Shown: piece after piece, positions 10,602 through 10,726 of the stretch
Numbering within the stretch: position 1 is the first letter of the stretch
How the letters are laid out: each line of letters starts with the position of its first letter
Virus record (IMG/VR): IMGVR_UViG_3300035438_001155
Span: 1 to 16,912 of that record
Length of the DNA stretch: 16,912 nucleotides
Origin: a virus
Direction: 5' to 3' (one strand)
Made by a program: the position numbers and the translations under genes
The notes under the pieces: model-generated
Database searches by the model: none
What the model was told of the DNA's origin: nothing
Seen by the model: only the letters and a program-made list of their open reading frames with translations

Positions 10602-10726
10602 GGGCCTCTATCATAATTGGTGAATGAACTCGCCTCGGGGGATGTAGGTTACACAATGAGGTTCAACTCCTCAATCCCCAAACTATAAGCGAGCATATCT
10701 CCGTTCGAACCGGAGGGGGCCTACCA
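10602..10726 (+). tRNA. tRNA-Pro-like (anticodon CGG) interrupted by a 48-nt insert at 37/38 (insert 10640-10687); CCA encoded; acceptor stem has two G-U pairs
   Basis: Acceptor gggcctc (10602-10608) pairs with ggggcct (10716-10722): 5 Watson-Crick plus 2 G-U. A10723 and CCA 10724-10726. D arm tcat-aattggtga-atga. Anticodon stem ctcgc (10629-10633) pairs with gcgag (10689-10693). Loop c-t-CGG-g, then a 48-nt insert. Variable catat. T arm ctccg-ttcgaac-cggag. Confidence 0.6.

Follow-up and report, generated by a model that had tools for sequence, protein, structure and literature searches.

The window analyzed here is a 16,912-nt stretch of viral DNA (IMG/VR virus record IMGVR_UViG_3300035438_001155, positions 1 to 16,912), and our subject is an interrupted transfer RNA (tRNA) gene at positions 10602-10726, whose insert resembles a miniature tRNA. 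In its default mode, ARAGORN detects just two tRNA genes in the window, tRNA-Gln (497-571) and tRNA-Arg (3117-3194). With introns allowed (ARAGORN -i), the program reports three interrupted genes: two tRNA-Leu genes with 51-nt inserts, at 347-484 and 1386-1525, and a gene labeled Pro(cgg) with a 48-nt insert, at 10602-10726. The Rfam tRNA model at its gathering threshold adds one interrupted gene, at 347-481. Because of its insert, the gene at 10602-10726 escapes the standard tRNA models; it was missed by default ARAGORN and by Rfam RF00005, whether at the gathering threshold or at E values up to 1. ARAGORN -i and RNA folding bear out the proposal of a first-pass annotation that a tRNA gene with a 48-nt anticodon-loop insert lies here, and the feature is real and non-random. 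Its parts, in the splice register that we favor, are as follows.

10558-10586, plus strand: sigma-70-like promoter (TTGACA at 10558-10563, 17-nt spacer, TAATAT at 10581-10586), with 10 of 12 matches.
10602-10726, plus strand: interrupted tRNA gene, 125 nt including the encoded CCA, from ARAGORN -i and the fold; removal of the insert in any of four registers gives a 77-nt tRNA.
10602-10636, plus strand: predicted 5′ exon, with the acceptor 5′ strand, D arm, anticodon-stem 5′ strand (10629-10633) and C32, U33 and C34, from the structural rule and alignment to phage tRNA-Met(CAU).
10637-10684, plus strand: putative mini-tRNA-like intron, 48 nt, from the structural rule, fold, Rfam alignment and register test; the alternatives are shifted by +1, +2 or +3 nt.
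10638-10643, plus strand: 5′ strand of P1, GGGGAU, an acceptor-like stem, from the fold and Rfam alignment; G10637 opposite A10680 is a possible closing G·A layer.
10644-10656, plus strand: P2 region in the D-arm position, a weak hairpin GUA-GGU-UAC (10644-10652) with GG in its loop, then ACAA, read by eye from the letters.
10657-10673, plus strand: P3, a T-arm-like hairpin UGAGG-UUCAACU-CCUCA that runs directly into the P1 3′ strand, from folds, descriptor search and Rfam alignment.
10674-10679, plus strand: 3′ strand of P1, AUCCCC, from the fold.
10680-10684, plus strand: predicted intron tail AAACU, in which A10680 faces G10637 and the 4-nt single strand AACU stands where N-CCA would be, from the structural rule.
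10685-10726, plus strand: predicted 3′ exon, with A35, U36, A37 and A38, the anticodon-stem 3′ strand (10689-10693), variable loop, T arm, acceptor 3′ strand, A73 and CCA, from the structural rule, register test and alignment.

The cloverleaf is intact and of bacterial type, with a 7-bp acceptor stem (GGGCCUC/GGGGCCU), a D arm (UCAU-AAUUGGUGA-AUGA), a 5-bp anticodon stem (CUCGC at 10629-10633 with GCGAG at 10689-10693), a 5-nt variable loop, a T arm with a GTTCRA-type loop (CUCCG-UUCGAAC-CGGAG), discriminator A73, and the encoded CCA at 10724-10726. The promoter lies just before the gene, as had been noted earlier, and gives a predicted leader of ∼8-10 nt; similar sigma-70-like sites stand upstream of other tRNA genes (268-296, 1341-1369, and 3066-3093). 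The whole locus is 100% identical across seven independent metagenome contigs (the window copy and L001-L006), so that no covariation could be obtained from these close relatives. The first-pass annotation had pointed to two G-U pairs in the acceptor stem and left the choice between a decaying pseudogene and a functional variant. Both pairs are present (G1·U72 and U6·G67), but the promoter, the encoded CCA, the intact cloverleaf, and the identity in seven contigs favor the second, and the gene looks functional rather than decaying.

Minimum free energy (MFE) and centroid folds pair GGGGAU (10638-10643) with AUCCCC (10674-10679), which agrees with the pairing predicted earlier between GGGGG at 10637-10641 and CCCC at 10676-10679. 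P1 and P3 together form a continuous 11-bp stack, or 12 layers including the G·A layer, and the P3 loop, UUCAACU, fits the T-loop consensus UUCRANY; the P2 hairpin at 10644-10652 is not part of the MFE fold. The insert has the shape of the top half of a tRNA, with an acceptor-like P1, a D-arm-like P2, a T-arm-like P3 stacked on P1, and a short single-stranded tail. The only Rfam match within 10590-10740 is the tRNA model on the insert itself, at 10638-10680 (16.4 bits, E 0.41, sub-threshold), in an alignment that retains the acceptor stem, T arm, and discriminator and deletes the D and anticodon arms.

The two sister genes have the same design.

347-484, plus strand: tRNA-Leu with a 51-nt insert; predicted intron 383-433 and loop CUCAAAA (anticodon CAA), from Rfam, ARAGORN -i, folds, and the rule.
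1386-1525, plus strand: tRNA-Leu with a 51-nt insert; predicted intron 1422-1472, loop CUUAAAA (anticodon UAA), and an 11-layer stack, from ARAGORN -i, folds, and the rule.

All three inserts share a common fold, in which P1 starts from nt 36/37, P2 is variable, and P3 continues on its 3′ side without a break into the 3′ strand of P1; the link to the anticodon stem is in each case a single-stranded, A-rich segment of 8-9 nt (AAACUAUAA, AAACAAAA, and AACAGAAA). The architecture common to the Leu genes, which had been claimed from the letters, is thus matched by a shared structural motif. A P1 at nt 36/37 with a contiguous P3 occurs in no more than 0.2-1.2% of dinucleotide shuffles per window insert, and an equal or better score in 0.02-0.04%. 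Since a MAFFT alignment of the three inserts was unusable, we relied on shuffle-controlled descriptor searches and not on a covariance model; a first, loose descriptor returned many AT-rich false positives. The presence of the same design in the two Leu inserts and in inserts of unrelated phages, together with its rarity in shuffles, supports the earlier view that the insert is a structured element and not junk. A pseudoknot between the A-rich tail and P2, possible in two of the inserts (UGUAG/CUAUA and UUUUG/CAAAA) and impossible in the third, was dropped.

The pairing had also been likened to the anticodon-intron helix of eukaryotic and archaeal pre-tRNAs. This likeness failed: the sequence does not accommodate a bulge-helix-bulge, and P1 corresponds to the acceptor-like stem of a module with the shape of a tRNA. 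A bulge-helix-bulge intron of archaeal or eukaryal type, cut by a splicing endonuclease, would suit the anticodon-loop location and a helix that involves nucleotides beside the anticodon. However, an internal loop of 4-5 nt/9 nt separates the anticodon stem from P1 in the fold and in all four registers, there is no 4-bp central helix, and no register yields the order 3-nt bulge, 4-bp helix, 3-nt bulge. The tail, which has no G and a single C, cannot pair with CUCG, the promoters are bacterial and the CCA is encoded, and Pfam revealed no EndA-like gene in the window. We give this account next to no credence.

A self-cleaving or self-splicing ribozyme, whether a group I intron or a small ribozyme (hammerhead, twister, pistol, or hatchet), is very improbable. 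While the insert is a three-way junction of ∼50 nt and group I introns are known in the anticodon loops of bacterial and phage tRNAs, no Rfam ribozyme or intron family matched at E values up to 1 over the window and up to 10 over the locus, 48 nt is far under any group I core, and no junction sequence is conserved among the three window inserts. The small self-cleaving ribozymes covered by these Rfam searches at the same E values (hammerhead, twister, twister-sister, pistol, hatchet, and hepatitis delta virus) gave no match. A hammerhead reading of the three-way junction was also rejected, since the core is lacking and the strands at the junction are not long enough.

Contigs for comparison came from IMG/VR pattern scans for tRNA genes with over-long spacing. 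In these scans, phage tRNA clusters often contain interrupted tRNA genes, 110-190 nt in length, which carry several types of insert. The design seen in the window recurs in contigs L144 (4219-4339), L158 (639-761 and 9989-10179), L200 (2155-2297), L323, and L333 (2989-3126 and 9601-9743). Of 51 candidate anticodon-loop introns from phage contigs, 9 show the design under a relaxed test (P1 starting at nt 34-39, a contiguous P3 with a 7-nt loop, and a tail of 2-12 nt), where 0.53 would be expected. P1 and P3 are each 4-7 bp long, and in the rule-based parse their sum is constant at 11-12, the length of the acceptor plus T stem of a tRNA. The junction rule itself places a G at intron position +1, 11-12 stacked layers, and a 4-nt tail, with removal leaving a 7-nt loop that has U33 and a purine at position 37. 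It is satisfied by 9 of 52 candidates, compared to 0.07 expected from shuffles. All nine conforming introns begin with G, and their tails are UCCA (two), ACCA (one), ACAA (three), AACA, ACAG, and AACU, the last being that of 10602-10726. With 12 layers including G·A, the tail AACU, and the loop CUCAUAA, the insert belongs to a compact mini-tRNA intron class, which is defined here and partly post hoc. When a concatenate of 12 intron-bearing tRNAs was compared with cultured phages, only a 3′ exon matched, in Rhizobium phages.

For the gene at 10602-10726, four registers each remove 48 nt and leave a 77-nt tRNA that default ARAGORN accepts, with anticodon CAU, CGU, CGG followed by A37, or CGG followed by G37. 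ARAGORN's calls for the two Leu genes, CAA and UAA, are recovered by a frame of one unpaired G, the helix, and five 3′ nucleotides; for Leu 347-484, this frame also gives the loop seen in the uninterrupted allele of contig L004. Applied to 10602-10726, the rule picks 10637-10684, with G10637 opposite A10680, tail AACU, loop CUCAUAA, and anticodon CAU. The expected exon junction would join ...CUCGCCUC to AUAAGCGAG....

The CAU-spliced sequence is identical to tRNA-Met(CAU) of Vibrio phage 1.110.O at 33 of 36 positions (E 3e-5) and also matches annotated tRNA-Met(CAU) genes of phages vB_VaM_H2, Ah1, and phiWae14. Aligned with the genes of 1.110.O and vB_VaM_H2, which carry an uninterrupted CUCAUAA loop, it shows a near-identical D arm and full identity over the 5′ strand of the anticodon stem and over bases 1-4 of the 3′ strand. 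The spliced form therefore shows both marks of a tRNA(CAU), the loop CUCAUAA and a body homologous to known CAU tRNAs. These data give good support for an insert that probably occupies 10637-10684, between C34 and A35, and for a mature loop CUCAUAA, which would make the product tRNA(CAU) and not tRNA-Pro(CGG). In the earlier label, "Pro-CGG" with the insert after nt 37, the 48-nt insert stands; the identity and the position depend on the register and are probably wrong, as the evidence favors CAU and an insert between nt 34 and 35.

A tRNA-Pro(CGG) with its intron after nt 36 or 37 (10639-10686 or 10640-10687) is nonetheless the call of ARAGORN -i, and both CGG registers give a valid tRNA. Proline tRNAs follow an m1G37 rule, with which the G37 register would comply. 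Set against this, the CGG-spliced control had no tRNA-Pro match in 50,697 phage records (blastn), whereas the CAU-spliced form matches tRNA-Met with a matching anticodon stem. Proline is absent among the 60 tRNA bodies closest to 10602-10726, while a genuine intron-bearing tRNA-Pro, in L333, obtains 7 of 10. CCG is the rarest proline codon in the open reading frames (ORFs) of the window (7 of 145), and other phage tRNAs of the window fit heavily used codons, for example AGA, CAA, and UUG. Moreover, the CGG registers violate the rule, to which both sister Leu genes and six introns of other phages conform. We regard the proline assignment as unlikely.

The CAU reading also draws support from, and connects the gene to, another gene of the same phage.

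6512-7114, plus strand: gene for a TilS N-terminal (lysidine synthetase) domain, 200 amino acids, with that domain only (NCBIfam TIGR02432, 122.5 bits vs. a cutoff of 93.6; Pfam PP-loop family, E 1.7e-30).

The substrate of TilS-class enzymes is tRNA with anticodon CAU, and a phage-encoded TilS is unusual. The TilS-domain protein may act on the interrupted tRNA(CAU), which lies 3.5 kb downstream. We infer that the product would be one of two species, elongator tRNA-Met or tRNA-Ile2, the latter through formation of lysidine by the TilS of the phage itself.

In other phages too, the rule often alters the anticodon that ARAGORN calls, and the nearest tRNA bodies and otherwise empty slots in tRNA clusters favor the rule-based anticodons. 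By the rule, the L144 gene is Ile(UAU); its neighbor is an intact Thr(UGU) gene, and its closest bodies include Ile(UAU). The L200 gene becomes Lys(UUU), beside an intact Gln(UUG) gene and with Lys as its closest bodies, and L333 9601-9743 likewise becomes Lys, again with Lys as its closest bodies. L158 639-761 becomes Asn(GUU), the sole Asn of a 26-tRNA cluster, and an Asn gene elsewhere has an identical anticodon stem. L333 2989-3126 remains Pro(UGG), with Pro in 7 of its 10 closest bodies. As the rule-based identities fill non-redundant slots, the interrupted genes look like working members of tRNA sets.

The scans brought up further insert types. One that is very common in phage tRNA genes is ∼40-50 nt long, consists of a covarying hairpin and then a conserved (U)GA-ACAGCAA, has no Rfam family, and sits in the anticodon loop or between the D and anticodon arms (L142 6304-6877; L148 9329-9444 and 11061-11413; L184 2058-2177; L188; L189 3717-4287; L198; L204; and many others). 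A third recurrent type combines a GC-rich hairpin with a GUUAYC/GUUACUUC motif (L131 4110-4237, L156 147-270, L222 3507-3629, L235 6159-6505, and L230). On L158, the contig with two mini-tRNA introns, a tRNA-Leu(UAA) at 1845-2120 has a 198-nt insert of the size and at the site of a classical group I intron, and this cluster may hold different intron kinds together. Other neighbors of interrupted genes are a class I aminoacyl-tRNA synthetase fragment beside an interrupted tRNA-Leu (L316 5444-6709) and a DUF2828 protein (L200 3243-3683).

The boundaries of the intron coincide with the ends of a mature mini-tRNA: the acceptor/T stack of 11-12 layers has a G+1 at its base, and the 4-nt tail is N-CCA-like. 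A G+1, an acceptor/T stack, and a CCA-like end form the geometry that RNase P and the tRNA 3′-end enzymes recognize, and these enzymes leave 3′-OH and 5′-phosphate ends, which ligases of the Rnl1/Rnl2 type can seal. With its G+1, 11-12-layer stack, and T-loop-like loop, the modeled insert is compatible with an RNase P substrate. From this geometry and the ligatable end chemistry we propose a scheme in which the mini-tRNA would serve as a handle for the tRNA end-processing machinery. RNase P would first cut at the 5′ G of the insert (10636|10637), as at tRNA position +1. A 3′ endonuclease would then cut at 10684|10685, four nucleotides past the helix, at the equivalent of the tRNA CCA end. Finally, the exon halves, held by the tRNA body, would be sealed by a phage RNA ligase for 3′-OH/5′-phosphate ends (T4 Rnl1/Rnl2 type). 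These cutting and ligation steps are deduced from the modeled structure; Lak megaphages, which have the nearest known introns, encode an Rnl2 homolog. Overall, the best explanation of the locus in our judgment is a mini-tRNA intron in a probable tRNA(CAU), excised by the tRNA end-processing machinery and a ligase, and we hold it with slightly less than even confidence.

Several observations weigh against it. Splicing of the insert is itself read from sequence, and Pfam and NCBIfam revealed no ligase, RNase, or kinase gene in the 17-kb window. The rule was partly derived from the sequences on which it is tested; the insert of Leu 1386-1525 needs 11 layers, not 12, and all three window inserts need the G·A closing layer. 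The Rfam tRNA match to the insert is weak (E 0.41), its alignment sets the acceptor start 1 nt later, at 10638, and the second Leu insert, with a P1 of only 4 bp, gives no Rfam tRNA match. Fold energies are unremarkable, with z scores of −1.8 for the whole gene and −1.5 and −1.2 for two insert-sized stretches. The tails of the three window inserts (AACU, AACA, and ACAG) lack CCA; therefore, canonical RNase Z would cut after the discriminator, three nucleotides early, and leave a 10-nt loop. Canonical RNase Z, which fits tails of 1 nt or NCCA and not these CCA-less 4-nt tails, was accordingly set aside as the 3′ nuclease. Finally, Lak-type introns have an extra 5′ hairpin and linker before their tRNA-like part (Devoto et al. 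2019, PMC6784885, Table S6), and RNase P alone cannot set the Lak 5′ junction.

The misfit of the Lak-type 5′ hairpin with a model based on RNase P only would be accommodated by a dedicated, probably phage-encoded endonuclease, for which the tRNA shape is a recognition handle only and which leaves 2′,3′-cyclic phosphate and 5′-OH ends for sealing by Pnkp/Rnl1 or RtcB. Phages repair anticodon-loop breaks in this way, as in the case of T4 Pnkp/Rnl1, and the spacing between the helix end and the 3′ junction is constant across different tail sequences, a pattern suggestive of a ruler-type enzyme. In L158, an AAA_33/KTI12-like P-loop kinase, possibly a polynucleotide kinase, is encoded at 10907-11377, ∼730 nt from an intron-bearing tRNA. 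Yet no candidate endonuclease was found in the window, and all nine rule-conforming introns have a G at the end of an 11-12-layer stack, the exact geometry of an RNase P substrate. We consider a dedicated endonuclease rather unlikely, if well worth keeping in view.

Homing endonuclease genes adjoin all three interrupted tRNA genes of the window and also those in L144 and L316. The one directly upstream of 10602-10726 is as follows.

9965-10537, minus strand: free-standing HNH homing endonuclease gene (Pfam HNH, 21.3 bits vs. a cutoff of 21.4; weak blastn similarity to annotated phage homing endonucleases).

This gene may be a partner of the insert in its immunity or its spread as DNA. By interrupting the target site, the insert may protect the tRNA gene from the adjoining enzyme, and the two may spread together. 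The tRNA region is moreover a hotspot of cassette swapping, as comparison of the contigs reveals. In L004, an uninterrupted tRNA-Leu(CAA) at 149-231, a different gene, fills the slot of window 347-484 between identical flanks, and the two share the predicted loop CUCAAAA; the difference is a whole-gene cassette swap. Homing endonuclease genes and tRNA-Arg vary among contigs as well: L001 has a 163-amino-acid gene instead of the 224-amino-acid one, and in L002 and L004 a 248-amino-acid gene replaces the GIY-YIG gene and tRNA-Arg is absent. An exon pattern with a long gap retrieved no intron-less or variant alleles from IMG/VR, and the intron-less exon pattern had no match in JGI metagenomes.

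The flanking homing endonuclease genes, here and in some other phages, and the swapping of cassettes would also suit an insert that is never spliced. It would then be a DNA-level insertion that, for example, destroys the target of the neighboring homing endonuclease, in a gene that is dead or a carrier that releases a mini-tRNA or tRNA halves. A clean insertion into a 7-nt loop likewise leaves seven loop nucleotides, and the case for splicing is built on sequence alone. Arguing the other way, the exons retain a perfect cloverleaf, promoter, and CCA; in other phages interrupted genes are the sole source of an isoacceptor within large tRNA sets; the insert boundaries match mature-tRNA ends, which a DNA-level process need not respect; and such introns are reported to be perfectly conserved across cohorts (Devoto et al.). 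We find this account improbable, though far from negligible.

The window is of phage origin, as judged from an MVP-like protein of 829 amino acids that is ∼37% identical to proteins of uncultured phages of 462-735 kb. Its gene (7155-9644, plus strand) carries an MVP shoulder domain and is shared, at that level of identity, with the largest known phage genomes. A homospermidine synthase gene (3873-5276, plus strand) is 41% identical to its counterpart in Ralstonia phage RSL1; both it and the MVP-like gene are unusual cargo for a phage. The window also encodes the TilS N-domain protein, a PTH2-like hydrolase, and HNH and GIY-YIG homing endonucleases. The same phage is seen in many metagenomes, on contigs of 12-19 kb. 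Two IMG/VR loci with a 59%-identical MVP-like gene had no tRNA genes there in a synteny check, and the region had no blastn match in cultured phages. At 14085-16877 (minus strand), a 930-amino-acid ORF of dozens of NTAVG-type repeats is probably a tail fiber; on the other strand it gives rise to spurious long ORFs and to recurring terminator-like hairpins. Just 3′ of tRNA-Arg, at 3210-3245 (plus strand), a small hairpin with a T-loop-like UUGGAAU loop is followed by GCGCCA, a possible free-standing minihelix, which in fold energy does not surpass its shuffles (z 0.3).

To our knowledge, bacteria and phages are thought to have self-splicing tRNA introns only. Small non-ribozyme tRNA introns of phages have been noted once before, in Lak megaphages, and left unexplained; the locus described here offers a very compact example, in triplicate. 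It is conceivable, although on balance unlikely, that these inserts represent a third kind of tRNA intron, distinct from group I and bulge-helix-bulge introns, in which a miniature tRNA is excised by RNase P and a 3′ nuclease and the nick is sealed by a phage RNA ligase. If true, a protein- and RNase P-dependent splicing pathway would operate in bacteria during phage infection. At the DNA level it could be linked to homing endonucleases, and at the RNA level to escape from anticodon nucleases. As the structural rule predicts exact junctions, the question is directly testable. The rule also corrects automatic annotation: ARAGORN anticodons for such genes are often wrong, and phage tRNA repertoires, codon-usage arguments, and recoding inferences from huge-phage genomes may therefore be biased. 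For 10602-10726, the corrected anticodon links the gene to the phage's own TilS.

Among known systems, group I tRNA introns (for example, those of cyanobacterial tRNA-Leu(UAA) and Azoarcus tRNA-Ile) resemble the insert in their anticodon-loop site within a bacterial-type tRNA gene and in the association with homing endonucleases in phages. Unlike them, the insert lacks both a P3-P9 catalytic core and an Rfam match and is ∼4 times too short (48 nt vs. ∼200 nt or more). The protein-spliced introns of archaea and eukaryotes (bulge-helix-bulge, EndA/Sen) are likewise small anticodon-loop introns, and as with them removal here would probably need protein enzymes and a ligase. They differ in that the insert has no bulge-helix-bulge, stands in a bacterial context of sigma-70-like promoters and encoded CCA, and is itself tRNA-shaped. 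In T4, anticodon-loop cleavage by PrrC is healed by Pnkp and sealed by Rnl1. A phage thus seals a break in a tRNA anticodon loop, which puts ligation within the phage repertoire; the T4 system, however, repairs damage and does not splice, and such genes are not visible in the window. A working analogy is provided by tRNA-like processing signals that are cut by RNase P and RNase Z, such as mascRNA from MALAT1, plant mitochondrial t-elements, and engineered polycistronic tRNA-gRNA arrays. There, too, a tRNA-shaped module in a longer transcript is released by tRNA end enzymes, but the flanks are not rejoined, whereas here they are tRNA halves that would need ligation.

The closest relatives are the introns that Devoto et al. 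2019 (Nat Microbiol; PMC6784885) described as "enigmatic" and perfectly conserved in tRNA genes of Lak megaphages, with no mechanism offered. Such introns were said not to have been reported in phages previously, and one was itself predicted as a tRNA (PMC6784885). Beyond that study, our literature search found no paper that explains them. Lak introns have a 5′ hairpin with an ARUAAA loop, an A-rich linker, and a tRNA-like part that comprises a T arm and an acceptor stem of 7 bp, with 2-3 nt left ahead of the 3′ exon (PMC6784885, Table S6). We also observed introns of this type (5′ ARUAAA-loop hairpin, A-rich linker, tRNA-like part, CA|A) in IMG/VR contigs L122 (1421-1591), L262 (6371-6536), L351 (∼3025 and ∼3962), and L327 (∼3437); these contigs are from other environments, and the type is therefore not confined to Prevotella megaphages. 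The window insert differs in its length (48 nt vs. 79-114 nt), has no sequence similarity to Lak introns, and begins directly with P1, the 5′ hairpin and A-rich linker being absent. The tRNA-like part of the Lak introns is fuller and ends 1-3 nt after the 7-bp stem, whereas the window insert has no equivalent of the anticodon arm and a tail of 4-5 nt. What they share is an insert in the anticodon loop of a phage tRNA gene that is ORF-less and has no Rfam intron or ribozyme match, perfect conservation between samples, and a tRNA-like module in which a T arm is stacked on an acceptor-like stem that ends near the 3′ junction. The insert is a compact variant of this known class of phage tRNA introns, first noted in Lak megaphages.

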